Assembly: GCA_038229915.1 (NCBI GenBank)
Contig: JBBRNY010000003.1
Location: 1-60,569 of the forward strand
Direction: 5' to 3'
Length of the DNA: 60,569 nt
Source of the DNA: Candidatus Kapaibacterium sp.
Lineage (GTDB): Bacteria > Bacteroidota > Ignavibacteria > Palsa-1295
Under the pieces are notes generated by a model that saw nothing but the letters and a program-made list of their open reading frames with translations, made no database searches and was not told the origin of the DNA. The translations under genes and the position numbers were made by a program. Below, one piece after another: positions 3,369 to 58,900 of the stretch (the stretch's first letter is position 1; each line of letters begins with the position of its first letter).

Positions 3369-3369
3369 T

Positions 3370-4230: not shown

Positions 4231-4332
4231 TGCGAAAGATGCTAACAATCATTTATTTTATAAATGCCCGTCAATCGAGTGAGAAAGCTATAATGGCTTT
4301 CAAAGGCATTTCCTCGGAGCAAACCAAAAATC

Positions 4333-18506: not shown

Positions 18507-18610
18507 GTATTGAAGTTTTTTCACTTCCAGTTTCAACCTTCCAACTCTTAGCCATATCGCAACCATAATTCAAGAGTGATGTTATACCCATATCATCTCT
18601 TTTGAAATCT

Positions 18611-20605
18611 ATGAAATATTTTGCCTGTGTTTATATTTTGTTCGGTGCTTTGCTTTTCGGTGCTGAGCCGCTTCGCGCTCAGGTTTCTTCTGATGTTGTT
18701 GTGATGCTACAAGCGAGCGTGACGCAGACTCCGCCCCGGATCACTCTTCGTTGGCAGACCGATGCTTCTGCGACTTCCGTCGTCTTGGTGCGCCGCCTTG
18801 TTGGTGCCGCAAGTTGGGGCGCAAATAAGACACTCCTGAAAACCGATACGGTGTACGTTGATACCACCGTTGTCGTTGGTACCGAGTATGAATATCGTAT
18901 CACCAGAGTTGTAAAACATCCCACTGCGATCAATGCTATCGGCTATATCCGTTCCGGGATTGATGTCACAGTAGGGGATAATGCCGGTGGATGTATCTTA
19001 GTCGTTGATACAACTTATGCTGCATTTTTTAAGAATGAGTTGATACGTCTTGAACAAGATCTTCTTGCTGAAGGTAATGTGGTGACTCGTGTGAATGTCA
19101 ATGCGAACGATAGCGTACCGGCGATCAAATACCGTTTGAGCGCAATTTATAACGCCGACCCTGATAATATCAAAACATTGTTTGTCTTTGGGCACGTCCC
19201 GATTCCATATTCTGGGTTTATCAATCCCGACGGGCATCCCGATCATCTTGGCGCTTGGCCGACCGATAATTATTATGGCGAGTTTGATGGTGATTGGACT
19301 GACGCCTACATTGATACTTCAAAAGCAAGAAGACCGATCAATCATAATGTGAATGGTGACGGAAAATTCGATCAATCACAATTGCCTGATGATGTAAATC
19401 TGCAGATCGGGCGCGTTGATCTCAGCAATATGCCGAACTTCGTACTGAGCGAAAAAGAATTGCTGAAGCAATATCTCGATAAAGATCACGCCTATCGTAC
19501 TGGTGAAATGGTAATACCAGAGCGAGCGTTGATCGATGATAATTTTGGATATTTTGGTGGCGAAGCCTTTGCATCAAGTGGATGGAGAAATTTCGCACCG
19601 TTAGTCGGTAGTGATAGCATTCATGAACTTGACTGGTTCACAACACTCCCATCAACCCCGTATCTCTGGGCGTATGGTTGTGGTGGCGGATATGATAACA
19701 GTTGCAGTGGTGTAGGGACAACAGCAGATTTTGCGGCAAACGATTCTCGCGCAGTTTTTACATTGCTCTTCGGAAGTTATTTCGGCGATTGGAATTTGCA
19801 GAATAATTTCTTGCGCGCTCCTCTTTGTACATCATATGGTTTGACGTGCGCTTGGAGCGGACGCCCCTACTGGGACGTCTTTCCGATGGGAATGGGACAC
19901 TCGACGGGCGAAGTCGCGATGCTCACGACGAATAATTCAGGAACATACGTTGCGAACTATGCAAACTATTGGGTTCATGTTGAGTTGATGGGCGACCCGA
20001 CACTTCGTTTGCGTCCATTCGCTGCGCCGAAATCAGTGTCGGCCAGCATTCCCGCAGAAAAAAACAGTGTTATGATTGACTGGCAGGGTACTTCCGGTGT
20101 GGATAATTATAATGTCTATCGAGCATCAGTCAAAGAAAATCATTTTGTGCTCTTGAATTCCACTCCGATCGTTGGTACTAACTATGTTGATTGGCATCCG
20201 ATCGCTGACTCAGCAATTTATCTTGTGCGCGGAGTACGCAGCGAAATCACCAAGTCCGGGAATTATCTTAATCTTTCACACGGTGCATTTGTCACGGTGC
20301 AAAGTGGTTTGAAAGATGCCGTACATCAAAGCGGCTCCGCCTCTTCGAATAAACTGTCGGTTATCTATCCTGTGACCGGGACTATCGCGACGGTGATGCT
20401 TGATCTGCAAGATGCTGGGCGCATTACTCTTGAGATAGTTGATCTGCAAGGGCGCACAGTCGAAGCTCTCGCAAATGATTACTATAGTAACGGCGCACAC
20501 CAGTTCGATTGGAATTTTGCGCAGTATGCTAACGGGCTGTACTTTGTTCGGATGACGGGCGCTATAGAGCCACTCTCATCAAAGATCTTAGTTCGGAAAT
20601 TTTAA
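18611..20605 (+). CDS. Large secreted T9SS cargo protein; the central region may be C25/clan-CD-peptidase-like (weak)
   Basis: Signal peptide MKYFACVYILFGALLFGAEPLRAQ. C-terminal CTD ...GRITLEIVDLQGRTVEALAN...NGLYFVRMTGAIEPLSSKILVRKF. LFVFGHVPIPYSG, LQIGRVDLSNMP and YGCGGGYDNSCSG segments. Confidence 0.75.
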   Translation: MKYFACVYILFGALLFGAEPLRAQVSSDVVVMLQASVTQTPPRITLRWQTDASATSVVLVRRLVGAASWGANKTLLKTDTVYVDTTVVVGTEYEYRITRVVKHPTAINAIGYIRSGIDVTVGDNAGGCILVVDTTYAAFFKNELIRLEQDLLAEGNVVTRVNVNANDSVPAIKYRLSAIYNADPDNIKTLFVFGHVPIPYSGFINPDGHPDHLGAWPTDNYYGEFDGDWTDAYIDTSKARRPINHNVNGDGKFDQSQLPDDVNLQIGRVDLSNMPNFVLSEKELLKQYLDKDHAYRTGEMVIPERALIDDNFGYFGGEAFASSGWRNFAPLVGSDSIHELDWFTTLPSTPYLWAYGCGGGYDNSCSGVGTTADFAANDSRAVFTLLFGSYFGDWNLQNNFLRAPLCTSYGLTCAWSGRPYWDVFPMGMGHSTGEVAMLTTNNSGTYVANYANYWVHVELMGDPTLRLRPFAAPKSVSASIPAEKNSVMIDWQGTSGVDNYNVYRASVKENHFVLLNSTPIVGTNYVDWHPIADSAIYLVRGVRSEITKSGNYLNLSHGAFVTVQSGLKDAVHQSGSASSNKLSVIYPVTGTIATVMLDLQDAGRITLEIVDLQGRTVEALANDYYSNGAHQFDWNFAQYANGLYFVRMTGAIEPLSSKILVRKF

Positions 20606-40853: not shown

Positions 40854-41405
40854 ATGAAAACAATTCTTGTATTTGTAACGACGCTCGATGGCAAAGTCAC
40901 GAAGTGGTTTGATCCGCATATATGGCAATGGTCGTCGAAAGAAGACCAAGCCTACTTTAAGCAGATCTGGAAAGACTACAAGCTCTTTATTATGGGCAGT
41001 GGTACGTTCAACTTCGACCCCGTGAAGCCGAACCCGGATTATCTTTTGACGATCATGACCCACGAGCCTGAGAAATACGAACAATATGTCACGAAAGGGC
41101 AGGTTGAATTCACGAGCGAGAGCGCCAAAGAAATTTCAGAACGCTTTAAAAAACAGGGGTATGAAACGATGGTCGTCGTGGGTGGACCTCACATCGCAAC
41201 GGCATTCCTCAAAGAACAACTGATCGATGAAGTTTGGCTGACGCTCGAACCAAAAATTTTCGGCACCGGCGGCAACTTCGTCATCGAAGAGCCACTCGAC
41301 GTCAACCTAAAACAACTCAGCTGCGAAAAAGTAAACGAACAGGGGACGATGATCACGAAGTATGCGGTGGTGAAAAAAGAAATGGCTCACCCTAATGTCT
41401 TATGA
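40854..41405 (+). CDS. Dihydrofolate-reductase-like / RibD C-terminal domain family protein
   Basis: MKTILVFVTTLDGKV and VVVGGPHIATAFLKEQLIDEVWLTLEPKIFGTG. Confidence 0.75.
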   Translation: MKTILVFVTTLDGKVTKWFDPHIWQWSSKEDQAYFKQIWKDYKLFIMGSGTFNFDPVKPNPDYLLTIMTHEPEKYEQYVTKGQVEFTSESAKEISERFKKQGYETMVVVGGPHIATAFLKEQLIDEVWLTLEPKIFGTGGNFVIEEPLDVNLKQLSCEKVNEQGTMITKYAVVKKEMAHPNVL

Positions 41406-41880
41406 TGAGTGTGAGAATACTTTTATTACGATCTAATATAATGTATAAAAAGTATATTCCTGTACGAAAAGAGGAAGTATCTATATTTGCCTCTTGCGAT
41501 GTAAGTGTGTAAGTGCATTCTAAATGGCGCCCCAAGTAGTCAAATATTTCAATTCTTTCAAGATCTGCAAAGCTTTTATTCAACAAAGTAACTTTACTGT
41601 CTGCTGGATTGGGAAACAGTGAATAAACCCGTTTATTAAACTGATAGTTATAGTCATCAGAATTAAGCCTATTATTAATTAATGAATCAAACAGTATCGT
41701 ACGTTTTTCAACACACACTAATGAGTCTTGGCATCCAAAATCAACAGTATCTATATTGGGCTTCGTCGATTTCTGATTTCTAACGAGATATACTTCTTTA
41801 CTAAAGGTCTGAGAGTATCCGACAGTGCAGACAAAAAAAGACTGAATAAGTAACGGAATAAAAATAATTTTATACCACAT
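41392..41880 (-). CDS. Small secreted protein with a T9SS C-terminal sorting domain (AT-rich operon, gene 3)
   Basis: Signal peptide MWYKIIFIPLLIQSFFVCTVGYSQ. CTD YSLFPNPADSKVTLL...IEIFDYLGRHL...GIYFLYIILD...LTLIIRH. The start lies 2 nt after the upstream stop. Confidence 0.7.
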   Translation of the reverse strand: MWYKIIFIPLLIQSFFVCTVGYSQTFSKEVYLVRNQKSTKPNIDTVDFGCQDSLVCVEKRTILFDSLINNRLNSDDYNYQFNKRVYSLFPNPADSKVTLLNKSFADLERIEIFDYLGRHLECTYTLTSQEANIDTSSFRTGIYFLYIILDRNKSILTLIIRH

Positions 41881-41882
41881 TA

Positions 41883-43196
41883 TTAACGACCATCCAAATA
41901 TGGAATAATTGCATTAGAAAGCTCATCATAAAGACTGTTCGAGTAACCACTTGATATCATGCGAATTTTCCTTTCTCTATCAATTAGGATGAAAGTTGGA
42001 TACCCATGAATTCCTATGGACTTAAGTTTTTCTTTTTCTATCGAGTATATGGGATAAGTAATGGTATCTCTCATACTAGCAGCTTGAATTTCCTTGAAGT
42101 TATCTTGTGGGTTAATTCCTACAATTGATAACCCTCTATCGCCAAAAGTTCTCTGCAACTTCTTCAAAGCTGGTATTGCTAAATGACAAGGCATACACGA
42201 ATTATAGGAAAAATCAAGCAAAATGACAGATTTAGGAAGATCATAAATTGTAAGTTCACTATTATTGGAGGAAGTAATTGTAATGTGGGGAAAATATTTG
42301 TTGTTGTAATCGAAAATCTCGGCATTTTTCTCAATATTTTTGGGAGTCGCTACAGGTGCCCCGAATTTGGTAGTATACATATATAAGGTATCATCAAAGA
42401 TTTTTTGTATATTTCGTGGGAATTCTGATTCATGAAAATACTTAAGGATTGCTATCGTTTTCATTGTGTCTTTTTCTACAAAAGTATAATTCTCCTCCCG
42501 AAGTAATATTTGCTCAGTTGTATCAAAGTAGTTTAGTGCCTTGCCACCTGAAAGAATTTTATTCCCATTCTCATCTAATGCGCCTATAAAGGCAATTTTT
42601 ACTTGAACACTATCCTTGCTTTTTAACGAATATCTATACCGTATCCCATTGATAATAGTATCATTTAACCGTAAATCGTGCTCGGTTGTTTTTCCTTTTT
42701 GCCGTAACAAAGAATAGACAAGCGGTTGAGATTCAAAATAGGTCTTTAATTCTTCCCAGCTCGATTCTTCAGTAAAAATCATGTTCTTTTTATCTTGGAT
42801 GCTATAAAATTTATGCCCATCAAAAAGTGAAATAGATATTCCTTTATGATTGATACCTTCGCTACGAACTAAAAATTTATAGCTTGCCGAATCAATTTGT
42901 TGAAAAATTATCTTGACTTTAAAAATGAAATCCTCCAATTTATACAGAGGATGACTGGTCACTTCAACCTCAATTTCGCCGCTATATAATGAATAGGTGG
43001 GTAACTTGGCATAGGTGAACACCTCTTTTTTAGAAGTAACGGAACCTGCTTTTAGGGGGTGAAATAGAAAAAAAAACAAAGCAAATGTCAAACAAAGTGA
43101 GATAGACTTTAATACAGAAATATCTCTTGGCAGAGAATAAAAAAAATTTCTGCCAAGAAATAAATAATAATTGTATTTAGATGTTTCTGGAGCCAT
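41883..43196 (-). CDS. TlpA/ResA-like thioredoxin-fold thiol:disulfide oxidoreductase with a ~290-aa N-terminal domain of unknown function (gene 2)
   Basis: VILLDFSYNSCMPCHLAIPALKKL (CxxC) and GYPTFILID. N-terminal membrane anchor. TAATG overlap with gene 1. Confidence 0.75.
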   Translation of the reverse strand: MAPETSKYNYYLFLGRNFFYSLPRDISVLKSISLCLTFALFFFLFHPLKAGSVTSKKEVFTYAKLPTYSLYSGEIEVEVTSHPLYKLEDFIFKVKIIFQQIDSASYKFLVRSEGINHKGISISLFDGHKFYSIQDKKNMIFTEESSWEELKTYFESQPLVYSLLRQKGKTTEHDLRLNDTIINGIRYRYSLKSKDSVQVKIAFIGALDENGNKILSGGKALNYFDTTEQILLREENYTFVEKDTMKTIAILKYFHESEFPRNIQKIFDDTLYMYTTKFGAPVATPKNIEKNAEIFDYNNKYFPHITITSSNNSELTIYDLPKSVILLDFSYNSCMPCHLAIPALKKLQRTFGDRGLSIVGINPQDNFKEIQAASMRDTITYPIYSIEKEKLKSIGIHGYPTFILIDRERKIRMISSGYSNSLYDELSNAIIPYLDGR

Positions 43197-43741
43197 TATT
43201 GGTATAGTGTTCCATTGTAATATACCTTGTCGGATGTCAAGAAAAGATTACCTTGGTACACTGAACTTCCGAACCCTGTAATTTCACAATTATAACAGCC
43301 ATCACAGCATGCTCTAACAACTGGTATTGTCTGTGTTACATAGACATTGCATTGGCCTGTCTGAGTTTGCCCCTCTGCATTTTTACATATACAAGTAAAT
43401 GGCCCAGTAGATCCTCCTCCAGCAATTACTGAAGGGTTACTTGAAGTGTCGAATGGTATTTGCCAATTCGTATGTCCATTATTGTTTAGTGTAACTGAGT
43501 TGGAATTATAGCTTGCCGGATTCATGAAAAACATAAATCCAGTATCGTTTGAAGGGGTTACGGTTGATGTTGTGACTCGAACACTACCATTCCCACTATC
43601 AATCAGAAGCATTTGAACTACAGTTGTATGACCGGGCAGGTATGACCTAAATGTATAACTTGTTACAGTTGCACTTGCTTGAGTATAGAGTGCTGTTAAA
43701 AGTAACAAACACAATGCGAAGTAAACAGAAATTGTCTTCAT
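43196..43741 (-). CDS. Secreted Cys-rich protein of unknown function (gene 1)
   Basis: Signal peptide MKTISVYFALCLLLLTALYTQASA. Eight Cys within about 40 aa near the C-terminus (CICKNAEGQTQTGQCNVYVTQTIPVVRACCDGCYNC). Confidence 0.65.
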   Translation of the reverse strand: MKTISVYFALCLLLLTALYTQASATVTSYTFRSYLPGHTTVVQMLLIDSGNGSVRVTTSTVTPSNDTGFMFFMNPASYNSNSVTLNNNGHTNWQIPFDTSSNPSVIAGGGSTGPFTCICKNAEGQTQTGQCNVYVTQTIPVVRACCDGCYNCEITGFGSSVYQGNLFLTSDKVYYNGTLYQ

Positions 43742-43790
43742 GACCTTCTCCTTATTAGGATGATGAACAAATAAATATGATTTTATTTGA

Positions 43791-43838
43791 TAGGCCTATC
43801 TTGCAATAGGCCTATCTTGCAATAGGCCTATCTTGCAA
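43791..43838. repeat. Three perfect tandem copies of the 16-bp unit TAGGCCTATCTTGCAA, each containing the 10-bp palindrome ATAGGCCTAT; operator-like
   Basis: Read directly. The copies are at 43791-43806, 43807-43822 and 43823-43838, which is 50-97 nt upstream of the start codon at 43741 (minus strand). Confidence 0.9.
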
Positions 43839-43885
43839 TTTAAGAAAGTATTAGTTTTTGTCTAAAGTTCCTTGAAAAAATATTT

Positions 43886-44890
43886 TTACCCCTGCACCGC
43901 CGTTACTGCGATCATTGCTACGATGTCATCAATATTTGCACCGCGGCTGAGGTCGTTCATTGGTTTTGCTAAGCCTTGGAGGATCGGTCCGATGGCTTGC
44001 CCCATTCCGAGGCGTTCGGCCATTTTATAGCCGATGTTACCGCTGTCGAGATTCGGAAAAATAAAAACGTTTGCATTGCCTTCGACCGGGCTACCGCTTG
44101 CTTTTCTTGCGGCGACCGATGGCACGAACGCCGCGTCGAATTGTAACTCGCCGTCGATGATAAGATCATATTCGCGTTCACGTACGATCTCGGTTGCAAG
44201 CGTAACACGTTTGGTCGAGTCGGTCGAGGCACTACCTTTGGTCGAGAACGATAGCATCGCAACACGAGGGATATTGCCCGTGAGTTGTTTATAGGTCTGT
44301 GCCGTCGAGATCGCAATATCAGCAAGCTGATGTGCATCAGGTTCGGGAATAACGGCGCAATCAGCAAATGCAAATGTCATCGGCTCTTTGCGAAACTCCC
44401 CCAAACTTGGGAAATCGAGCAAGAACATACTCGAAAGCGACCGAACACTTTGCGCAAGCCCAATGCCGTGAAGCGCGGCGCGAATAACCGATGCTGTGGT
44501 CGAAAGCGAACCTGCCACTATCCCATCGAAGAGGCCGCTATGGACAAGCAATGCGCCGAAGAGCAGAGGATCGTTATGCACTTCACTACGGGCGGAGTCA
44601 GGATCAGAAATTTTTGATTTACGGCTCTCGTAATATTGCGAAACAAGAACATCGGTCTCGGCAAAAGTCTCAGCCGACCAGATGGGTATATCAAGAAGCG
44701 ATGGCGCAACACGAGAAATTTGTTCTTTGATGGCTTCGGGGTCACCGACAAATTCGACACGCGCAATTTTGTGTGCGATCACCATTTCAGCCGCGTGAAG
44801 GATGCGCTCATCGGTTGCATCACCGAGCAGAATTTTTTTATTGAGCGCTCGTGCTCGCGCGCCAATTTTCTCGATCGAAAGTGTTGACAT
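43886..44890 (-). CDS. pta: Phosphate acetyltransferase (short form)
   Basis: 334 aa. ILLGDATDERILHAA N-terminus, FADCAVIPEP, GNANVFIFPNLDSGNIGYK and DLSRGANIDDIV. Confidence 0.8.
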   Translation of the reverse strand: MSTLSIEKIGARARALNKKILLGDATDERILHAAEMVIAHKIARVEFVGDPEAIKEQISRVAPSLLDIPIWSAETFAETDVLVSQYYESRKSKISDPDSARSEVHNDPLLFGALLVHSGLFDGIVAGSLSTTASVIRAALHGIGLAQSVRSLSSMFLLDFPSLGEFRKEPMTFAFADCAVIPEPDAHQLADIAISTAQTYKQLTGNIPRVAMLSFSTKGSASTDSTKRVTLATEIVREREYDLIIDGELQFDAAFVPSVAARKASGSPVEGNANVFIFPNLDSGNIGYKMAERLGMGQAIGPILQGLAKPMNDLSRGANIDDIVAMIAVTAVQG

Positions 44891-47025: not shown

Positions 47026-47250
47026 AAAACTGTGCTTATAATACTGTTATAATTATTTTCTTTTTTGAGCCGACTCAAGTCGGCTCTACTGTTGTTTTTT
47101 TTGATGATGCCGTAGTTCATCCTTACAATAACACGCAGAGAATGTACTTTTGTATCTCCCTTAGCAACATTTTTTTCAAAATAGTTGATATTCTTTTCAA
47201 AAAAGTGTTATTTCGGACGTTCGCATCATTTATTCTATCGTTGAAATCTT

Positions 47251-48303
47251 ATGCGCGTAGCACTACTGGCAAACATCAAACCTGAAGGTCTTGACATCTG
47301 GAACAGAACTCCGGACGGCAAAGACGACGACACATTTGCCGAATGGGATACGTTCGAAACCATTGATGCTGTTCGCGCGGCGCTCGAGTCGCACCCCGAT
47401 GTTGAGTGTGAGATCGTCGAGGCTTTACCCGAAAAAGCATTGCCACGATTGATGGTACGTGCTTATGACATCGTCTTTAATCTTGCCGAAGGTCTGCGCG
47501 GCGCCGACCGCGAGGCGCAATTCCCGGCGGTGCTCGAAATGCTCGGCATTCCCTATACGGGCTCTGGTCCGTTCACTCTTGCGGCGGCACTTGACAAAGC
47601 ACGCACCAAAGAAATTCTTGCTTATCACGGTGTGCCGGTCGGGAGATTCGCCACGACAACCGATGCAACTACCTCATTAGAAAAACTACTACCCGGGCTT
47701 GAGTATCCTGTGGTCGTGAAGCCGACATCGGAAGGCTCGTCGAAAGGCGTAAAGAATTCTTCGTTTGTAAAAAATGATCAGGAGCTTCGCGCCGAGATAG
47801 CTCGTATTATAAAAGAATACGGGCAACGTGCTATCGTCGAAGAATTTTTATCGGGGAAAGAATTTACGGTTGCTGTGCTGGGCAATGGTGCGGAGGCGCG
47901 AGTACTGCCGATAGTCGAGATCAAACTTGGCGAACTTCCGCCCGAAGCAAACGGTATTTATTCGTATGAAGCGAAGTGGGTCTATGATACGACCGAGCAT
48001 CCGCTCGATATTTTTTCGTGTCCTGCCGATCTGCCCGATGAAGTAACCAAAGATATTTCCGAGACCGTGCTTGCCGGATATAATGCGCTCGGCTGTCGCG
48101 ATTGGTCGCGTATTGATGTTCGTCTTGATAGCAACGGCAAAGCAAACATCATCGAGATCAACCCGCTCCCAGGTATTCTTCCAAACCCCGAAGACAACTC
48201 CTGCTTCCCCAAAGCCGCAAGAACCGCGGGAATGAATTACAACCAAACAATGCTCGCCGTTTTGAGGGCTGGGTGTGGGAGGTATGGGATTGAGTTATTG
48301 TAA
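47251..48303 (+). CDS. ATP-grasp ligase, D-alanine--D-alanine ligase family (paralog 1)
   Basis: MRVALLAN, LEMLGIPYTGSG, YPVVVKPTSEGSSKGV, AIVEEFLSGKEFTVAVLG and IIEINPLPG. Confidence 0.8.
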   Translation: MRVALLANIKPEGLDIWNRTPDGKDDDTFAEWDTFETIDAVRAALESHPDVECEIVEALPEKALPRLMVRAYDIVFNLAEGLRGADREAQFPAVLEMLGIPYTGSGPFTLAAALDKARTKEILAYHGVPVGRFATTTDATTSLEKLLPGLEYPVVVKPTSEGSSKGVKNSSFVKNDQELRAEIARIIKEYGQRAIVEEFLSGKEFTVAVLGNGAEARVLPIVEIKLGELPPEANGIYSYEAKWVYDTTEHPLDIFSCPADLPDEVTKDISETVLAGYNALGCRDWSRIDVRLDSNGKANIIEINPLPGILPNPEDNSCFPKAARTAGMNYNQTMLAVLRAGCGRYGIELL

Positions 48304-49456
48304 ATTTTTCTTAACACTCACGTTTATATTGTTACACGGGTTGTCCTGTCTAACTGGCTATGCATTTGACTTGAAAGCAGGGAAATTAATCCCGAAACAA
48401 CCGATAACTCTCTACCCATTTGATTACAATTACACAGATAGTCTCAAAGGCACAACCTTGAAGCTTGTTGATGCAGTCAAGTATCATGGTGCGTTGCGGA
48501 AGCAGTTTCCTAACGAAAACGTACAGAAGTATATTGACAAGGAAATGACTGTACTATCTATAAAAAAGAAAAAAGACACGAAGGGGGACATATACTTCCT
48601 TACGACATTGAGGATGAACGATAGTAAAGAAAAATTGCAATTGAGAATTCATGAAGATGATTTCTACTGTTTTTTCTATTCCATAACTGATCTCAGTAGA
48701 GTGAAAAAAAAGTGGATTGGGAAAAAGTTATGGACAAACGGAACATATACAAGTTTTTTAAAATCAGATGAGAAAAACATAAACTATATGTTTACGCCTT
48801 TCACTGTTTCTGACATTGCTTTTTCAGAACGTGATCTTCCAACAACAATACAATATGTTTTTATAGGGACGACAGCGGAAGGTGACACCATAAAAATAAA
48901 TTGTTCTCCCTATAAAATTGGTGACCCTGGGATTGGTATTGATTTTGCCTTCGGATTAAACCTGCTCGAGAAAGAGCCAAATGATATTTGGAATACATCG
49001 CCACAAAACATAGATGACTTTCTCGGATTTAACTTGACACTTGGTATGCAAGATGTGATGAAAGCTATTCAAGAAAAAGGGCTGCAACCAAGAGATGTGG
49101 CAATAATGGATTCTATAAGTAAAAATGAATTTAAATTTGGGCTATTTGCTGTCGATAGCTTTAAAATCGCAGGAATCGGTACATTCAATTCGAATTTTTA
49201 TTTTTATGATAGTAAATTTGATTTTATACACATCAATATCGGTTCAGAATTTAAGGGGACTGAGTATAACGATCTCCTTAGAAAATTAACTACACAGTTC
49301 GGGGAAGTTACAGACCACTATACTTTGAATGATCCGTTTTCTCAGAAACAGACGCGGATGGATGTGTGGGCTTTCTACTCCCCGGGGCAGATCCGAACGA
49401 AATCAATCCTTTTGCAAAAAATTAACGGACATATTCGATTGATTATACACGGATAA
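48284..49456 (+). CDS. Hypothetical secreted or lipoprotein, AT-rich insert between the two ATP-grasp genes
   Basis: ATG 48284 gives MGLSYCKFFLTLTFILLHGLSCLTGYA. Its start overlaps the 3' end of the upstream gene. No recognisable family. Confidence 0.55.
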   Translation: MGLSYCKFFLTLTFILLHGLSCLTGYAFDLKAGKLIPKQPITLYPFDYNYTDSLKGTTLKLVDAVKYHGALRKQFPNENVQKYIDKEMTVLSIKKKKDTKGDIYFLTTLRMNDSKEKLQLRIHEDDFYCFFYSITDLSRVKKKWIGKKLWTNGTYTSFLKSDEKNINYMFTPFTVSDIAFSERDLPTTIQYVFIGTTAEGDTIKINCSPYKIGDPGIGIDFAFGLNLLEKEPNDIWNTSPQNIDDFLGFNLTLGMQDVMKAIQEKGLQPRDVAIMDSISKNEFKFGLFAVDSFKIAGIGTFNSNFYFYDSKFDFIHINIGSEFKGTEYNDLLRKLTTQFGEVTDHYTLNDPFSQKQTRMDVWAFYSPGQIRTKSILLQKINGHIRLIIHG

Positions 49457-49533
49457 TTATATTCTTTAACCAAATTCGCTCTTTTGGTGCTTCTTGGCAT
49501 TTCTCCTGAAAAAGATTTGTTAGAAGGCGCGCT

Positions 49534-50592
49534 ATGCGAATTGCACTTATATATAACGAGCCGAAGCACACCGAGCCTGATGACCATTGGTTGTCGAAAT
49601 CGGGTACGGAGCTGTCGCAGACATTCCGCGACGCTTCGGAGTTTGGCGTGCTTGAGGAGATCGAACATATTGCCGCCGCGCTTCGCGAGGGCAGTCATAC
49701 GGTCACGATCTTTTCGGTAGATGATGATGTCGAGCGTCTGGTGAGTTTTCTTGAGAACGACCGCCCCGAGGCGATCTTTAATTTATGCGAGTCGGTGCTT
49801 GGTCGTGCCGATCTCGAAATGTGTATCGCCGGTGTGTTCGATCTTTTTGGTATTCCGTTTACCGGTGCGGGCACGATGGGTCTTGGTATTGCGCTCAACA
49901 AAGCGATCTCGAAAGCGATCTTCGCCGCGAATCATATCCCGACTCCGGCATTCGAAGCTTATGAAGTAGGCGAAACGCCGACTGATGATATTTCGCTGAA
50001 CTATCCGCTGATCGTAAAGCCGCTTCGCGAAGATGCGAGTATTGGTATTGATAATAATTCGATCGTCAGCAATTTTGCCGCATTGTGCGAACGCGTCGAG
50101 TTCGTGCATCTCGAATTCAAACAGCCGGCACTTGTTGAAGAATTTATTGATGGCAGAGAGTTGAATGTTGCCGTGATTGCAACCGACGACGGAAGTTTTA
50201 AGACATTGCCGATCTCTGAGATCACGTTTGATGCGTTGCCGCCCGGCAATCCGCGTATCGTGAGTTACGAAGCGAAGTGGGTCGAGGAATCACCGCTCTA
50301 CAAAACGACCGTCCCGAAATGTCCGGCTGTGCTTGATGAAGAAATTGCGATTCGTGCAAGAGCCATCGCGCTCAAAGCAGCGAACACTGTCGGTCTGCGC
50401 GACTATGGTCGCATCGATATGCGCCTTCGCGATGACGGCGCACTCTTCGTGCTCGAAGCCAACCCCAACCCCGACATCTCGCAAGACGCCGGCTTTATGC
50501 GCGCCTGCTTTACCAGCGGGCTAACGCATTCGCAAGCTATCAATCTCATAGCCTCGCAAGCCCAGAAGAGAATTTTACCCACCAAGAAATAA
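49534..50592 (+). CDS. ATP-grasp ligase, D-alanine--D-alanine ligase family (paralog 2)
   Basis: MRIALIYN, FDLFGIPFTGAG, YPLIVKPLREDASIGI, ALVEEFIDGRELNVAVI and VLEANPNPD. Confidence 0.8.
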   Translation: MRIALIYNEPKHTEPDDHWLSKSGTELSQTFRDASEFGVLEEIEHIAAALREGSHTVTIFSVDDDVERLVSFLENDRPEAIFNLCESVLGRADLEMCIAGVFDLFGIPFTGAGTMGLGIALNKAISKAIFAANHIPTPAFEAYEVGETPTDDISLNYPLIVKPLREDASIGIDNNSIVSNFAALCERVEFVHLEFKQPALVEEFIDGRELNVAVIATDDGSFKTLPISEITFDALPPGNPRIVSYEAKWVEESPLYKTTVPKCPAVLDEEIAIRARAIALKAANTVGLRDYGRIDMRLRDDGALFVLEANPNPDISQDAGFMRACFTSGLTHSQAINLIASQAQKRILPTKK

Positions 50593-50750
50593 TTTGTAAC
50601 GTTTGTTTGCCGTTTGTCTTCCAATGCAATTATTCTTTTAAATTTATTCAGATCAGAAAATAATTTTGCTTTTTGTTTACACTTATCAACAGAAAAATTG
50701 TAAATAAAAAGTTTTTTCATTTTAAATTTGGAAAATTGATTTTAATTTCG

Positions 50751-50758
50751 TATTTTTG
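50751..50758 (+). promoter_or_regulatory. TAnnTTTG-type -7 promoter motif (TATTTTTG) upstream of the GNAT gene
   Basis: TCGTATTTTTGTT lies in a 224-nt AT-rich gap, about 60 nt upstream of the start at 50817/50820. Confidence 0.35.
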
Positions 50759-50816
50759 TTGATAGATGAAGAACAATTCACGAATTATTCTTTGTGTAAT
50801 TGTCTTTTAAACTATT

Positions 50817-51335
50817 GTGATGCACTTTGCATCGAATAGTACAGCGAAAGAACGAATGACGAGAACAGTTGAACAACGTGATCGTAGTGAGATTATTCAG
50901 ATCGTTCGAGCCACCGGTAACTTCAACGAAGAAGAGATCGCGATCGCTGCTGAGCTCATTGACATCTACTTGAACCAACCCGAGCAACGCGACTACTACG
51001 CATTCGTCGAAGACGATGGCGGTAAGGTCGCCGGATTTTTGATCGTAGGACCAACGCCTGCAACGACCGGTACATTTGATATGTATTGGATCGCTTCGCA
51101 TCCGGACTTTTACGGTAAAGGAATTTCGCAAACGCTCGATCGGTTCGCCGAAACATTTGTGAGAGAACGCGGAGGATATTTGCTGATCGCCGAAACGAGC
51201 AGTCAACCATCTTACGAACGTACCCGAGCATTCTATAAGAAGCAAGGTTACGCCGTCGTCTCGCAGATCACCGATTATTACAAACCCGGTGACGACTTAG
51301 TCGTCTTTGGCAAACGAGTAGATACTTTATTATAG
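50817..51335 (+). CDS. GNAT-family N-acetyltransferase (small, 172 aa)
   Basis: VAGFLIVGP...YWIASHPDFYGKGISQTL...RAFYKKQGY is a typical GNAT core. Start ambiguous (GTG 50817, ATG 50820 or ATG 50856). Confidence 0.8.
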   Translation: MMHFASNSTAKERMTRTVEQRDRSEIIQIVRATGNFNEEEIAIAAELIDIYLNQPEQRDYYAFVEDDGGKVAGFLIVGPTPATTGTFDMYWIASHPDFYGKGISQTLDRFAETFVRERGGYLLIAETSSQPSYERTRAFYKKQGYAVVSQITDYYKPGDDLVVFGKRVDTLL

Positions 51336-51447
51336 TATGAAGTGTGAACGCAGATTGTGGGTAAGTCCATAATTGTTCATTCACCTTCATAAATCACCAG
51401 CCGTGTCTTCCGAGATGTCGGGGGCAATGGCAAAATAGAAAGCATAT

Positions 51448-52584
51448 ATGGAATATTGGCAGCAGCTGTTGCGTGACAGCATTGAAACAAAAGAACAGTT
51501 GGTCGAGCGTTTTGGTGTGAAAGCCGAAGTAGCCGATGAACTCAATCAGTTCTTCCAGACACGCATTAACCCTTACTATCTCTCGCTCATTCGCTATAAA
51601 GGCGATCCGATCTGGCTCCAAGCAGTGCCCGACGAACTCGAGCTATCCGATATTGATGCACCCGACGATCCGTTGAATGAAGACGCGATGAGTCCGGTAC
51701 CATCAATAACACATCGTTATCCCGACCGAGTATTGTTTCTCGTGACAAGCCAGTGCTCGATGTACTGCCGTTTTTGTACGCGCAAACGCAAAGTAGGTGA
51801 TTCGTCGAAGATCTCGATGAAGTACATCCAAGAAGGGTTAGACTATATAGCTGCGCATCCTGAAGTTCGCGACGTTATCCTTTCCGGAGGCGATCCGCTG
51901 ACTCTTACTGATTTTATGCTCGAGAAGGTCTTAAAGGGTCTTCGCGAGATCCCGCACGTCGAGATCATCCGTCTCGGCACTAAGATTCCGTGCGTTCTGC
52001 CTCAGCGCGTGACGCCGAAATTGTGTGAGATGATCAAAAAGTATCATCCTATCTACGTAAACACCCATTTTAACCATCCGTGGGAATGTACCCCCGAGGC
52101 AAAACAGGCTTGCGAGATGCTCGCAGATGCCGGTTGCCCGGTCGGAAACCAGATGGTATTAATGAAGGGCGTGAATGACGACGCTATGGTCGTGAAGGAA
52201 TTGATGCAGAAATTGCTCGCAATGCGAGTTCGTCCCTACTATATATATCAAGCTGATATTACTAAGGGCGCGAACCACTTCCGTACCCCTGTTCGGGTCG
52301 GCTTGGAGATCATGGACAAGCTTCGCGGCTGGACCAGCGGCTTGGCAATTCCACACTATGTAATAGATGCCCCCGGTGGCGGCGGCAAGATACCGATCTT
52401 GCCAAATTACGTCGTTAGCCATGACGAAAATACGTGGGTGCTTCGTAATTATAAGTATGACATCTATACATACCCGGATGTCGTCGAGGAGAAACCATCA
52501 CTTCCGGCAAAACGCAAGCCAATTCGTTCGCCAAGAAAGAAGAAGGTTTTTGCTGAAAAAGTATCACGAGATGAGGGAAAATAG
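51448..52584 (+). CDS. kamA: Lysine 2,3-aminomutase (KamA-family radical SAM / PLP enzyme)
   Basis: CSMYCRFCTRK radical-SAM motif, INPYYLSLI, THRYPDRVLFL, RPYYIYQADIT and VIDAPGGGGK (PLP lysine). Confidence 0.9.
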   Translation: MEYWQQLLRDSIETKEQLVERFGVKAEVADELNQFFQTRINPYYLSLIRYKGDPIWLQAVPDELELSDIDAPDDPLNEDAMSPVPSITHRYPDRVLFLVTSQCSMYCRFCTRKRKVGDSSKISMKYIQEGLDYIAAHPEVRDVILSGGDPLTLTDFMLEKVLKGLREIPHVEIIRLGTKIPCVLPQRVTPKLCEMIKKYHPIYVNTHFNHPWECTPEAKQACEMLADAGCPVGNQMVLMKGVNDDAMVVKELMQKLLAMRVRPYYIYQADITKGANHFRTPVRVGLEIMDKLRGWTSGLAIPHYVIDAPGGGGKIPILPNYVVSHDENTWVLRNYKYDIYTYPDVVEEKPSLPAKRKPIRSPRKKKVFAEKVSRDEGK

Positions 52585-52646
52585 GCCGTCTTTTTATCGA
52601 GAAATATGGCTGTAAGTGTAACAATAGTATTCAATACCAACCAAAG

Positions 52647-52675
52647 CGACTCCCACCCCGGAGTCGTTTTTTTTT
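52647..52675 (+). terminator. Rho-independent terminator after kamA
   Basis: CGACTCC-(loop)-GGAGTCG followed by a run of 9 T. Confidence 0.8.
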
Positions 52676-52958: not shown

Positions 52959-55900
52959 ATGAGACGTATTACATACATCGTTTTAGCAGTACTCTTTGTA
53001 GTGCTCGTCAACACTTCATTGTTTGCTCAGGGCGCATCTCGCACATTTGGTGCAGGTCGTTTGCAGCTCGATGACGGCGCGAACAACTTCGTATATATGA
53101 CAACCAAGACTGGTACGCTCGGTATTGATAATACCGGTGCTGTCATTCCTGGCGTGCAAACATTCCCGAGCAATTGCGCTCTTCTCGACCTCTCTTCGGT
53201 AACGAAGGGTTTCTTGCCTCCGAGAATGCTCACTGCGCAGGAAATGAATATCTGCGGCGGTACACCAAACGAAGGTCTCGTTGTGTACAACCTCAGCACT
53301 CATACATTAGACGTGTATAATGGTAGCGGCTGGGCACCTGTCGGTGGCGGCTGGTCTCTCTTCGGTAACTCACTCACCGTTGGTGGTGGTACTGGAGCCG
53401 GACAAAACTACATTGGTACAAACAATGCTACAGATTTTGTGATCGCTACGAATGTCGGAGCTCCTGGCTCTGGTGTTGGTGAGCGTATTCGTGTCACATC
53501 TACTGGCAATGTAAACATTGCTGGTATCAATGGTGTCTCGAACATCACTGCTTCTTCACTCGGTGGTGCGCCTCTTTTAGCTCCGCCTTTGAACTTGCCA
53601 ACTGATGGGCTTATCATTGGTAAGAATGCAGGTGATCTTTATAAATATGATGTTGCGACCGTTGTAGGTGCAGTTGCTTGGTTACGTACCGGCAACACCA
53701 TTCTCGACGTTAACAACAAACTTGGTACGATCAATGACGTTGCTATCAATATCGTTACGAACGATGCTACTCGTGTAACGATTGGCAACTCAGCCGCTGC
53801 AAACGCAGTAACCGTTACGGGTAACGCACTCATTAATGGCAATGCTGCTGTAACTGGCACATTCACTTCGGCAGGTAACTCGACTGTCGGCACAAACGGA
53901 GCTACAACCAATTCATTTGGTAATACTGGCGCTTCAGTCAATGCTATCGGTAACGGCATTGGTGCTCAGAACACTGTGGGTAACGGCGGCGGTGCTACAA
54001 GTAATACTATTGGTACCAATGCCGCATCTAATAACTTTGGCAATGGTGCTACCAATAACAACTTTGGTAATGTCGCAGTAATGAATCAATTCGGTACTGG
54101 CGCAACAACCAACAATATTGGTACTTCGGGTACATCAACGAACACTGTTCTTGGTACAACGAATATCAATACTACTGGCAATAGTGCTACATCTATCGGA
54201 AGCACAGCAACCGGCGGCGCAGTAACGATCGCTACTTCGAATCCTAATCCTCTTACATTGAATGTTGGTGCAACGACGAACAATCTCGTCTTGAACAACA
54301 TCCTTCAGGATAATAATGCTGTTAATTTATTGATGCTCACTGGCGTCAATAGTGGTAATACTCGCACACGTGCAATTGGTACGCTGATCGCAGCAAATGA
54401 AGGTCTTGTACTTGATCTCTCGAACCCAGCTTTGCCAACTGTAAAGCTCGGAAGTTCGGCGCTTGACCCGGTTAATGCTTTCCTTACAAATCGTACCGTC
54501 AGTCTTGGTGCGAATCTCTTGAACTTCAATAATAATGGTAACGTCACGTTTGCTAGCCTTAATGGTGCGAACAACGCGATTAACCTCAACAACTTCAGCG
54601 CAACAGCTAACACAAACATTGGCTTCGACGCAGTTGGAAATAACGTAGCTATCCAAGGTCGTACAACGAATGTTGGTACTTTGAGCGCTGCTCAGGCTAT
54701 CAATATCGGTACTGGCGGTGGTAATACCACTATCGGTCTTGCTCCTGGAAGCACGAACAACATTAATGGTACGAACAACACGATGACAGCAACAGGTACT
54801 AACTTGTTGACTGCACCGACCAACACGATCAACGGTACTACACAGAATAATGTGACTGCACCGACGAACGTGATCACTGGTAACACGTTGAACAACATCA
54901 CTTCAACCACAGAAAACCGTGTTTCAGGACCTACCAATATCAATACAACAACAGCAAACACAACTACCATCGGTAACGGTGGCGCAGTTGCTTCAAACAC
55001 TGTTGTCAATGTTGGTACAGCTGGTGGTAATTTGACTCTCAATAACATCGTTAACGACAACACCATCACCAACATCCTCGTGCAGACGGGTGCCGCTGGT
55101 TCTGGTAACGTTCGTTATCGCACACTTGCATCGCTCATCGCAGCTAATCAAGGTTTGATCCTTGATAACAGTACGCCAACTCCGACCGTAAGACTCGGTA
55201 GCGCAGCTGGTGACCCAGTCAATCCGTTCTTAGTAAATCGCACTGTTTCTCTCGGTGGTCAGTCATTGTTCATCAATGATGGCAACTCGGGCACACAGTT
55301 GGCTCAGTTCAACGGCGCTGGTGATGTGATCAACTTGAACACATTGACAACAGGTACAACAACGATCGGTAGCTCAACAGCAACCGCAACAAATATCAAC
55401 GGACCTACCAATATCAATAACGCTGTTAACTCGAATACCCAGATCAACACTGGCGGTTCTTCGGGAACAGTAACAATTGGTAACGCCGCTGCTGGTACCG
55501 TTCAGCTCACTTCGGGTACTGCAGTAAATGCAAACTCACCGAACAACACGTTGACTGCAACAACAACAAACTTGTTGACTGCACCAACTAACACTTTAAC
55601 TGGTGCTACGACCAATAACGTTAATGCACCGACCAATAACATGGGTGCTACATTGTTGAACAACATCAACAGTGCTACGGAAAACCGTTTAACGGGACCT
55701 ACCAATATCAACACTACTGCGAACAACTTGACAACGATCGGTCAGAATGCTGGTACAGCTTCTACGACTGTTATCAATGTCGGTACAGCAGGTGGAAACT
55801 TGACGTTGAACAACATCGTCCGTGATAACTTTTCTATCAGCTTGCTCACGACTACCGGTATCGGTTCTCCTGCATCTGGTAACGTTCGTTATCGCCAGCT

Positions 55901-58900
55901 TGCAACGCTCATCGCTGCTGACCAAGGTTTGATCCTTGATAACAGCACTGCAACGCCGACCGTAAGACTCGGTAGCGCAGGCGGTGACCCAGTCAATCCA
56001 TTCGCTGCTAATCGCACCGTTTCTTTGGCTAATAACCAATTGATCTTTAATGATAACGCTGCTGTCGGATTTGTTACTCTTAACGGTAATACCGATGCAG
56101 TCAATATCAACACCACAACTGCTGGTACGACAACGATCGGTAGCTCAACCGCTACTGCTACAAATATCAACGGACCGACCAACATCAATAACGCTGTTAA
56201 CTCGAACACTCAGATCAACACTGGTGGTAGCTCGGGTTCAGTAACTGTTGGTACGACATCTGCTGGTACCGTTGCTCTTACTTCAGGTACAGCCGTTAAC
56301 GTCAATATTCTTGGACCATCAGCGACCAACATCAACACTGGTACTGCTACTGGCGACGTTAATCTCGGTAACACTGGCTTAGGACCGAACATCAATATGT
56401 CGGTTAACGCTGCTCGTAATATCACGATGCAGAATATCCAAACCGATATTGCTCCTACACAATGGTTGACATTGAATGCTGCTAACCAGGTTAAAGTAAC
56501 TTCGCTCGCGAACATCGCAGAGCAGGGCGTAAGCTACCAGCTTGAAGCAAGCGGTACTCGCTTCCGTCTCGGCGGTATCACTTCTACTCAGGTGCCGTTC
56601 ACTGTTAATGATCGTTTCATTAATATGGACGCTCGCAACTTGTTCTTCACACGTAATGGTGGTGCGAACAACGTTATGCAGCTCACTGGTGGTGCAACTG
56701 GCGGCGTAGATATTACTGCTCCGACGAACATCAATACTGCAAATAATCTTAACACAGCTATCGGTACTGTTGCTGGTGCTGGCGGATCAACGACCATCAA
56801 CGGTCGTCCGCTCAACCTCAATAACGGCGGCGGCGCTAATGGCGTAACCAACATCGGTAATACCGTTGGTGGTATCACCGTCACTGGTCGTTCGACATAC
56901 AGTGCTTCTAGCCCGATCAACCTCACCGGAACTGACGGTACCTCTAACCAGGTAATGCGTTCGAACGGTCTTGGTGCTACTCCGAGCTGGTTCACACTCA
57001 CAACCGATGCTACTTTGCTCGGTGATGGTGTCGGAACTTCATTCGGTATCGACCTCAACCACTCAAATACCTGGAACGTCTCGCAGACATTTGGCGACAA
57101 CGTAGGTATTGATAACTTCACTGTCAACACAGGTGTCGGCGGCGGAACTGCAACGATCAATCTTCAGGGCGGCGGAAATCTCGTCCTCAATAACATCGCT
57201 AACGACAACACAACGACCAACATCTTGACTATCAGTGGTGCTGGTTCGGGTAACGTTCGTTATCGCACACTTGCTTCGTTGATCAATGCCGATCAAGGTA
57301 CACAGCTTGTTACGATCGCTGGAGTTCCTACCGTATTGCTCGGTGGTGCTACTAACGTGATCAACCCATTGACAAGCACACGTTTTGTGAACTTGACCAA
57401 TCAGGTCTTGAACTTCACAAACGCGGCTGGTGCAAATAATCTTGTCCAACTCGACGGTAATGCAGGCTCTGTAGCTGTTAATGGTACACTTACCTCAACA
57501 GGCAACACGACTCTTGCAACCAACGCTGCTACGACCAACACATTTGGTAATAACGCTGCAACGTCTAACTCGATCGGTACTTCAGCGGTCACCAATAACT
57601 TTGGTAACAGCGCTGTTGCTTCAACAACAACCAATAACATCGGTAATTCGAATGCTGCTGGTGGTACGACCATCAACAATATCGGTCGCCCAGTTGCTGG
57701 CGGTTTCTCAACTACCAATATCGGTGATATTGCTGGCGCAGGTTCTGCTATCAATGTTCTTGGTGTTACAAGTATCAACACAACCTTTGCGGCTACTACC
57801 ACGATCGGCAATACAGGTGCCGGTGGTAATGTCACGATTGCAAGTGCTAATACTATCGCACTCAATGGTACAACCAACATCAACACTGGTGCCTACAAAT
57901 TGACATCTGTCGGTGATGGTGCTACTGCTAACCAACAGCTTCGCGTTAATGGCGTTGCTGACGCTATTGTCGGTAACACACTCGGTGCTAACCCAACCGT
58001 ATGGGATCTCGTCGTCACTGGCGATCAGGTCACAACTGGTATCGCGAAATTCGGCGGTTCACTTTGGATCGACGGCGTAAGCGCTACTCACCAGATCAAT
58101 GCTAACGCTCCGTTGAACATCGTTACTACGGGCGGTAACTTGGGCTTGACGGCTTCGGGTTCGATCAACTTCAATTCGAACATCGGTACAAGCATCGTTC
58201 CGAGCGTTAACAACTCGTTCGATCTTGGTTCTGCTGCTAATCGTTGGAACAACTTGTTCGTAACGACTATCAACTTGCCACTCGGTACTTATCCTTCAGG
58301 ATCAGTCTTGTTTGCTAACGCTGCAGGTCAGATCGCTGCTGATAATCCAAGCTTCTTCTATAGCAACACACTCAAACGCCTCGGTATCGGAAACAACGCT
58401 CCGACTCAGGCTCTTGACGTAACTGGTAATGGTAACTTCAGCGGTTCACTCGCAGTTGGTACTACAGTGACTGCTGGTAGTTCAGTTGGCGCAGGTTCAT
58501 CAGTAACTGCTGGAACATTCATGACGGCAGGAACAAGCATTGCTGCAGGAACAACTATCACAGCTGGAACAGGAATCACATCTAACTCTGGTAACATCGT
58601 TGCAACAGCTGGTCAGGTAAACGCAGGAACAAGTATGACTGCTGGTACCACGATCAACGCAGGTGGTGCGATCACAGCTGGATCAACACTCGCAGCAGGA
58701 ACTTCAATCACTGCTGGTACATCGATTGCAGCTGGAACGACACTTACCGCAGGTACAGGTTTAACTGTAACCTCAGGTGGTGCAACGATCAACGGTTTCG
58801 CAGCTTCAGCAGATGCATTCCTCGTTACTGTTCCAACGGCCGCTGGTGGTGATCTTCACACACGTACCGTTGCTTCACTTCCATTTATTGGTGGTAGTGG

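Follow-up and report, generated by a model that had tools for sequence, protein, structure and literature searches.

We have analysed a stretch of 60,569 nucleotides from Candidatus Kapaibacterium sp. (contig JBBRNY010000003.1, positions 1 to 60,569 of the forward strand; hereafter the window) and describe in it an operon of four genes, encoding two Ddl-type ATP-grasp ligases (AG1 and AG2), a small acetyltransferase of the GNAT family and a radical S-adenosylmethionine (SAM) lysine 2,3-aminomutase of the KamA family. We favour, with moderate confidence, the reading that this operon directs the cytoplasmic synthesis of a small amide that contains beta-lysine and whose formation depends on the ligases. 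An initial annotation of this DNA had put forward a pathway to a beta-lysine-derived amide as a candidate, and had named three findings that would speak against it: the absence of co-occurrence of these genes in other genomes, ligases that are genuine D-Ala-D-Ala ligases, and an aminomutase that groups with EpmB. All three were examined, none of them was found, and the candidate pathway is supported by the comparisons presented below.

Conservation of the operon

The four enzyme genes had been placed on one strand within 5.3 kb, and open reading frame (ORF) calling agrees with this: five ORFs occupy the plus strand within 47251-52584, in the order AG1, an inserted ORF, AG2, GNAT and KamA (Table 1). 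The gaps of 224 nt (between AG2 and the GNAT ORF) and 112 nt (between GNAT and KamA) are also as first described, as is the AT-rich character of the inserted ORF, with a GC content of about 0.40 against about 0.46; all the gaps of the operon fall between 77 and 263 nt. The view that these genes are linked by proximity only is nevertheless refuted by the conservation of their order in other genomes and by the existence of a second gene order.

Two sets of loci were compared. The genome set comprises 80 loci from contigs representing one genome per species, retrieved through the alignment of AG1 homologues and searched by tblastn with the window proteins, of which 63 are informative, as their sequence continues for 3.6 kb or more beyond AG1; the metagenome set comprises 80 loci from a contig scan seeded with a divergent AG1. 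The order AG1-AG2-GNAT-KamA, on the same strand, is kept in 57 of the 63 informative genome loci and in most of the sufficiently long metagenome loci, with reading frames that often abut or overlap (e.g., in L002). Altogether, the set is retained in more than 100 genome and metagenome loci, under labels that span at least six phyla, some labels of metagenome-assembled genomes possibly being binning errors. Taxa given in the record titles are Kapabacteria, Ignavibacteriota (including Ignavibacterium, Melioribacter and Stygiobacter), Kryptonia-type Bacteroidota, Desulfuromonadales/Geobacteraceae, Acidobacteriota, Aminicenantes, Planctomycetota, Auribacterota and Nitrospinota. The gene-neighbourhood comparison that the initial annotation had proposed as a check hence bears out co-occurrence across phyla, with the four families co-oriented under many phylum labels. 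AG1 itself has more than 7800 homologues in the protein database, and those that are named bear the labels Candidatus Kapabacteria, Ignavibacteriota or Bacteroidota.

Clustering of all ORFs in the flanks of 83 loci (the locus set that was also examined for efp and for the inserted ORF) revealed no further conserved partner, such as a transporter, a peptidase or an amidotransferase, and no linked mur or dcw gene in any lineage. The flanks consist of lineage-specific housekeeping genes, namely those for RecG, GpsA and PlsY in Ignavibacteria and those for a HEAT-repeat peptidyl-prolyl isomerase (HEAT-PPIase) and pta in Kapabacteria.

The window GNAT, used as a query, returned close relatives with uninformative names, and the sequence of its structural homologue PDB 2R7H, used in the same way, led to the second gene order. 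This order, KamA-AG-AG-GNAT, is found in L084 (Desulfovibrio mangrovi), L086 and L087, the last of which encodes a protein sharing 99% identity with the 2R7H query; the same families, with one ligase gene called, are present in L085 (Woeseia). Comparison with the window proteins by BLASTP shows that in these clusters the first ligase is of AG1 type (36-38% identity) and the second of AG2 type (30%), with 33-41% identity for GNAT and 47-51% for KamA. That the four families have stayed together in a rearranged order and between unrelated flanks argues strongly for a joint function, and on the grounds of this conservation we conclude that the four genes constitute an operon rather than a mere neighbourhood. 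That they lie side by side by chance, with no functional coupling, could be argued from the gaps of 77-263 nt and from the inserted ORF in the window; the occurrence of the set in more than 100 loci, in two gene orders and between unrelated flanks effectively refutes this explanation, to which we attach practically no weight.

In two Desulfovibrionales-type loci with the second gene order, a sigma-54 enhancer-binding protein is encoded directly upstream of kamA and in the same orientation (2857-4293 in L084, 3874-5310 in L087), and the protein from L084 shows a weak match to a response-regulator receiver domain. The location of this putative activator next to the operon suggests signal-dependent control in such loci.

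A separate observation concerns L001, a contig of 3.58 Mb where the reading frame at the AG2 position (11173-12228) is interrupted by numerous stops and kamA is broken up as well, through either decay of the operon or long-read indel errors.

The aminomutase

KamA matches the lysine 2,3-aminomutase (LAM) of Clostridium subterminale (2A5H) with E = 1e-120 and passes the NCBIfam KamA-family model TIGR00238 (294.8 bits, cut-off 199.2). Its score on the AblA equivalog TIGR03820 is 467.4 bits, below the cut-off of 525.4. Membership fails for EpmB/YjeK (TIGR03821, 224.7 bits, cut-off 369.3), as it does for the equivalogs of glutamate 2,3-aminomutase (428.5, cut-off 650) and arginine 2,3-aminomutase (342.4, cut-off 600). 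The protein is placed as AblA-like rather than EpmB-like because it reaches 467 bits on the AblA model and 225 on that of EpmB, so that a grouping with EpmB is not what we observe.

The CxxxCxxC motif, R134 and the pyridoxal phosphate (PLP) lysine K337 (2A5H numbering) are invariant in all 68 operon-linked KamAs, and correspond to C103, C107, C110, R112 and K314 in the window protein. Asp293 and Asp330, which bind the epsilon-ammonium group of lysine and which, as reportedly described by Ruzicka and Frey in 2007, are replaced by Lys and Asn in glutamate 2,3-aminomutase, are kept in 67 of the 68 sequences. Their presence in the window as D270 and D307 confirms the earlier remark that the lysine-specific residues are retained. 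The LAM_C domain is matched over profile positions 1-56 of 127, its distal half being apparently absent, and the protein ends in a Lys/Arg-rich tail. Judged by its active-site residues and model scores, KamA is an aminomutase of LAM type, specific for lysine, and neither a canonical AblA nor an EpmB.

The acetyltransferase

Since the homologues of GNAT, of about 155-160 residues, leave the first 10-15 residues of the ORF unmatched (their alignments begin at residue 11-16), translation is likely to start at ATG 50856; the 172 aa first given are the length of the ORF, the protein itself probably having 159. Its homologue 2R7H (E = 1.8e-25) was deposited as a 'putative D-alanine N-acetyltransferase of GNAT family', a name that appears to stem from neighbouring Ddl-like genes; a near-identical protein is encoded in a cluster made of a sigma-54 activator, KamA, two ATP-grasp ligases and GNAT. 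A search of the full-text literature found no functional study of 2R7H. The window GNAT shows the customary acetyl-CoA fold. Its NCBIfam matches are weak (rimI, 30 bits; STAT, 19; PRK03624, 19) and include no AblB-type model, the presence of such a model in the release not being confirmed. Weak similarity to streptothricin/nourseothricin acetyltransferases (E about 1e-3 to 1e-2) provides a lead only; in the substrates of these enzymes, a beta-lysine moiety is acetylated at its beta-amino group. On the basis of these comparisons, GNAT is not AblB.

This bears on a simpler explanation of the gene set, according to which KamA and GNAT by themselves would make the osmolyte N-epsilon-acetyl-beta-lysine in the manner of AblA/AblB (YodP/KamA in Bacillus), the ligases being accessory or unrelated. 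As in that system, an aminomutase of LAM/AblA type that keeps its lysine-binding and catalytic residues, and for which AblA is the closest model, is encoded beside a GNAT. A survey that split LAM/AblA from YjeK also scored as ablB the acetyltransferase genes adjoining ablA in Desulfuromonas acetoxidans (PMC2821294), genes that may or may not be those of the present operon. However, the operon GNAT, of about 159 residues, belongs to another family and is smaller than AblB (considerably so, according to the initial annotation), and KamA falls under the AblA equivalog cut-off (467 vs 525) and appears to lack the distal half of LAM_C. The two Ddl-type ligases are obligatory partners, which are at least as tightly conserved with GNAT as KamA is and which stay in 13 loci with no kamA nearby. 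We therefore consider an AblA/AblB-type osmolyte pathway very unlikely.

The two ligases

The proposed paralogy of AG1 and AG2 is confirmed by 34% identity over 342 residues (E = 2e-51) and by the presence in both of the motifs YP(V/L)(V/I)VKP, EEF..G.E..VAV and E(I/A)NP. A Ddl-type ATP-grasp fold is indicated by Pfam for both ligases and by Foldseek for the AlphaFold2 model of AG1 (pLDDT 79.7), whose top matches are DdlB and DdlA, over the full length and with TM values of 0.73-0.84; the low-confidence regions of this model include two family-specific insertions (residues 15-28 and 310-315). DdlB is also the best PDB match of AG1 by phmmer (2.8e-36). Both proteins nevertheless stay under the cut-offs of the Ddl models, with 192.8 bits for AG1 and 132.7 for AG2 on NF002378 (cut-off 243), and 164 and 114, respectively, on TIGR01205 (cut-off 245.65).

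In common with the Ddl/VanA family, the two ligases have the residues for ATP, Mg and acyl-phosphate catalysis: K97, K144, E180, E187, K215, R255, D257, E270 and N272 of DdlB are found in every one of the 69 AG2 and in 63-64 of the 64 AG1 sequences, the equivalent of K215 being Arg in one AG1. The DdlB sequence used for this numbering agrees with the PDB alignment over residues 49-303, and the N-terminal E15 and H63 of Ddl, whose alignment is ambiguous, were left unused. Other features differ from that family. Tyr216, which lies in the omega loop and belongs to the Ser150-Tyr216-Glu15 triad, is replaced by Trp in 63/64 AG1 and 69/69 AG2, and there are insertions near the N-terminus (about 15 residues) and ahead of the S281 loop (4 residues). 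The loop for the second substrate (G276, S281 and L282 of DdlB) also differs between the two: AG1 keeps S150, G276 and S281 of DdlB, with Cys at position 282, whereas in the AG2 family S150 has become Ala, G276 an invariant Asp, S281 Ala or Ser (Ala in 46 of the 69 sequences) and L282 Gly. From these alignments we conclude that AG1 and AG2 descend from the Ddl lineage and are catalytically competent as carboxylate-amine ligases, their substrate sites differing both from each other and from that of Ddl. Scores under the cut-offs and the replacement of Tyr216 are not what genuine D-Ala-D-Ala ligases would present, and the context of these paired genes, with GNAT and KamA and without mur or dcw genes, also argues against a Ddl role.

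Variants of the operon

AG1 is the member of the module that is retained in every variant examined. One informative variant comprises 13 loci (6 from genomes and 7 from metagenomes, among them L041, L059, L062, L074, L076, L082, L089, L104, L109, L116, L123 and L151), in which kamA is absent from the stretch of contig examined. The gene order here is a deoxyhypusine synthase (DHS) homologue, agmatinase, pyruvoyl arginine decarboxylase, AG1, AG2, in part of the cases GNAT, and a SAM methyltransferase, all on the same strand, and in L062 consecutive genes overlap by 4 bp. The DHS homologue scores 434.6 bits on NF002006 'deoxyhypusine synthase' (cut-off 434), more than on the SpeY-type model, while the agmatinase passes TIGR01230 and the decarboxylase NF009064. 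All the DHS-type loci with a taxon in their title are labelled Deltaproteobacteria or Thermodesulfobacteriota. Viewed across these variants, the conserved core is AG1(-AG2)-GNAT, and its pairing with polyamine-type genes in a minority of loci indicates that the ligases may not be strictly specific for beta-lysine.

A further partner, adjoining the operon in both gene orders, is a protein of about 580 residues in which an N-terminal GNAT domain is fused to a C-terminal Hist_deacetyl domain (L084, 8629-10386; L086, 6268-8004; L078, 7963-9690, minus strand; also L091, L093, L119 and L121). The fusion adjoins AG1-first operons in L078, L091, L093, L119 and L121, and it matches no NCBIfam model. 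Proteins of the Hist_deacetyl family, of 498-585 residues, occur in L084, L085 and L086, fused to GNAT in L084 and L086. The histone deacetylase (HDAC) family includes acetylpolyamine amidohydrolases.

These variants raise the question of whether the module acts on cationic amines of any kind and acylates their primary amino groups. The result would be an aminoacyl- or acyl-polyamine-like conjugate and not a beta-lysyl peptide, and the amine supplied in most lineages would simply happen to be beta-lysine or one of its derivatives, decarboxylated or otherwise. This explanation, which overlaps with the one that we favour, is suggested by the genes preceding the ligases in the 13 DHS-type loci and by the HDAC-family domains, fused to GNAT, that accompany the operon. 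An Asp in place of G276 and the loss of S281 in AG2 would also fit a cationic second substrate with no carboxylate. In addition, gene clusters in which a DHS homologue (SpeY) is combined with an agmatinase homologue and an arginine decarboxylase have been shown to make homospermidine from agmatine (PMC13625781, 2026). On the other hand, the DHS-type context is a minority and, given the narrow range of its labels, may go back to one evolutionary event; AG1 keeps the equivalent of Ser281, which in Ddl helps to hold the carboxylate of the second amino acid; and the operons of Kapabacteria, Ignavibacteria and Desulfovibrio contain no polyamine gene. Polyamine-type tailoring as the general function of the module thus seems unlikely to us, though less so than the other alternatives to a beta-lysine amide.

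A third arrangement consists of minimal KamA-AG1 pairs (L069, L096 and L167). In EpmB/EpmA an aminomutase makes beta-lysine and a dedicated ligase attaches it, a logic that these pairs mirror, and the alternation of KamA with a DHS homologue points in the same direction, both families feeding lysine modifications of EF-P/IF5A. The module could accordingly be imagined to serve beta-lysylation of EF-P or of another protein by an ATP-grasp enzyme or, as relatives of Ddl act on peptidoglycan precursors, the attachment of beta-lysine to the stem peptide of peptidoglycan. Yet the operon ligase is an ATP-grasp enzyme and not a paralogue of LysRS, KamA is far under the EpmB cut-off, and tblastn with E. 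coli EF-P detected no efp in the window, as the initial annotation had noted, nor in the 83 loci; no epmA was found there either, and neither gene lies beside the minimal pairs L096 and L167. Desulfuromonas acetoxidans has a separate yjeK-efp cluster according to the 2010 survey (PMC2821294). As for the cell wall, the lack of linked mur or dcw genes in any lineage weighs against it, and for a protein target, no conserved candidate acceptor is encoded nearby. The suggestion that KamA might serve EF-P is hence disfavoured and the EF-P link was dropped; modification of a protein or of the cell wall as a whole appears improbable.

Discussion

In this study, we have described a gene set in which a source of beta-lysine is associated with two ligases and an acetyltransferase. 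In the pathway that we favour, to a beta-lysine-containing amide, KamA would convert L-lysine to beta-lysine (3,6-diaminohexanoate), a step assigned with high confidence from the conserved active-site residues. AG1 and AG2 would make one amide bond each, by way of an acyl phosphate. In the AG1 reaction the acid or the amine partner would be beta-lysine or N-acetyl-beta-lysine, and AG2 would add the second amide, its Asp276 and, in about two-thirds of the sequences, Ala281 being suited to a cationic nucleophile without a carboxylate. GNAT would acetylate, or otherwise acylate, one free amino group, either to cap the product for good or to protect that group for a time; the second option is raised by the fusions of GNAT with an HDAC-type deacetylase found beside the operon in other lineages. 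The expected product is a di- or tri-(pseudo)peptide or a polyamine-like conjugate, N-acylated and with beta-lysine as a constituent, which is probably intracellular because neither an exporter nor a signal peptide is encoded in the operon. It might serve, for instance, as a compatible solute, as a polycation analogue or as a reserve rich in nitrogen, the first two roles being suggested by the alternation of the module with polyamine genes.

Several observations weigh against this proposal. AG1 and AG2 are recognised as ligases by homology, and their substrates are predicted from sequence. In the window, co-transcription is likewise presumed across gaps of 77-263 nt and an inserted ORF. The 13 loci with no kamA in the stretch examined, whose AG1 is 55-62% identical to the KamA-type AG1, imply that the ligases may use beta-lysine as just one building block among several amines or acids, or may not use it directly at all. 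Finally, no deacetylase is encoded near the operon in the window genome.

A broader proposal, more tentative than the pathway itself and on balance somewhat doubtful, is that AG1-AG2-GNAT constitutes a portable tailoring module for the production of N-acetylated amide conjugates, a family not described so far and one that would be widespread among bacteria of anaerobic and sediment habitats. Its input would be beta-lysine, provided by KamA, in most lineages and, in some loci labelled Deltaproteobacteria or Thermodesulfobacteriota, a polyamine of agmatine or homospermidine type provided by the DHS-like, agmatinase and arginine decarboxylase genes; its products would be polyamine surrogates or compatible solutes, regulated in some lineages by a cycle of acetylation and deacetylation (through the GNAT::HDAC fusions) and by sigma-54 control.

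The nearest precedent for the proposed logic is Ngg/AsnO, the system for N-acetylglutaminylglutamine amide, where a GNAT and an ATP-grasp activity give an N-acetylated, dipeptide-type compatible solute. Unlike the present operon, Ngg is a single bifunctional protein with an ATP-grasp domain of another subfamily, acts on glutamine and needs the amidotransferase AsnO. The enzyme families are known, and the logic of the operon is akin to that of AblAB, EpmAB and Ngg. We found no published description of the operon in the full-text literature (the amidoligase survey of Iyer et al. 2009 was not covered), and the NCBI names of its members are generic only.

To our knowledge, the recognised fates of beta-lysine in prokaryotes, alongside lysine fermentation, are the osmolyte N-epsilon-acetyl-beta-lysine, beta-lysylation of EF-P and a few actinomycete antibiotics. 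If our proposal is correct, the operon would represent a fourth, ligase-dependent fate. As KamA and polyamine genes alternate beside one and the same ligase module, beta-lysine may be connected with polyamine-type metabolites in a way not recognised so far. These ideas are amenable to experiment: four genes suffice for heterologous expression, the structure of a GNAT homologue is solved (2R7H), and the carriers include the cultured Melioribacter, Stygiobacter and Desulfovibrio mangrovi, with genetically tractable sulfate reducers among the hosts.

Other features of the window

The coordinates of the operon and of its putative signals are collected in Table 1. The terminator-like hairpin downstream of kamA is the probable end of the operon. 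Upstream of AG1, the divergent neighbours encode a HEAT-repeat/cyclophilin protein and a phosphotransacetylase.

Table 1. Genes and candidate signals of the operon region in the window
Feature	Position	Strand	Remarks
AG1, Ddl-type ATP-grasp carboxylate-amine ligase	47251-48303	+	350 aa; Pfam Dala_Dala_lig_C 2.9e-39
Inserted orphan ORF	48275/48284-49456	+	393/390 aa; no Pfam/NCBIfam match
AG2, Ddl-type ATP-grasp ligase	49534-50592	+	352 aa; Dala_Dala_lig_C 2e-25
Small GNAT	ORF 50817-51335, likely start ATG 50856	+	172 aa ORF, 159 aa from ATG; Acetyltransf_1/7
KamA-family radical-SAM, PLP-dependent lysine 2,3-aminomutase	51448-52584	+	378 aa; Radical_SAM and LAM_C
Intergenic region, shared with the divergent HEAT-repeat/cyclophilin gene	47026-47250	+	
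Sigma-70-like site, candidate AG1 promoter	47101-47129	+	Consensus match only
GC-rich hairpin of 8 bp with a T-rich stretch behind it, before the predicted AG1 promoter	47067-47086	+	
Intrinsic-terminator-like hairpin	52643-52670	+	11-pair stem followed by a T run

The ORF inserted between the ligase genes (48284-49456) overlaps the AG1 stop by 20 nt and has an N-terminus resembling a signal peptide. Among 1.84 billion representative proteins it matched only itself, and no counterpart was present in any of the 83 loci searched with it. These two results rule it out as a component of the system, and by its lack of relatives the 390-aa ORF is a lineage-specific orphan with no conserved role. The AG1-AG2 junction seems to tolerate insertions, as the related Kapabacteria loci L008 and L009 also have enlarged gaps at this place.

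A CCGTG-[hairpin]-GCAATGG element, present in one copy in the window, lies on the plus strand at 51401-51430, 18-47 nt before the start codon of kamA. The same element precedes kamA in L001, L004-L009 and L070, all of them Kapabacteria-type loci, and it is missing where the GNAT-kamA gap is short, for instance in Ignavibacteria. Three of the four scored pairs of its stem hold their pairing despite changes on both sides, and the flanking motifs are invariant. This pattern of conservation suggests a possible role of the element as a regulatory RNA acting in cis or as a binding site for a protein. Rfam gave zero matches for the window region at E values up to 1 and, at the gathering threshold, zero for seven diverse loci; a riboswitch or leader RNA was dropped as a candidate after these scans.

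The remainder of the window is ordinary chromosome, with genes for cytochrome oxidase, NADH dehydrogenase subunits, a Mur ligase and proteins with type IX secretion sorting tails, and among the window ORFs scanned there is no ddl-type gene beyond AG1 and AG2. Just past the putative operon terminator, an ORF of 2525 residues (52959-60536, plus strand) contains zero Pfam domains, and parts of a homologue are found downstream of kamA in L004 and L005. An AT-rich block (41000-44000, GC 0.33-0.39 against about 0.46), which may be acquired DNA, encodes a type IX sorting-tail protein, a thioredoxin/AhpC-like protein and a domain-free ORF. Four large ORFs with no Pfam match (654, 319, 556 and 667 aa) are located on the plus strand within 12367-16957 and 18602-20605, and two squalene/phytoene-synthase paralogues lie in tandem on the minus strand at 2430-4248.

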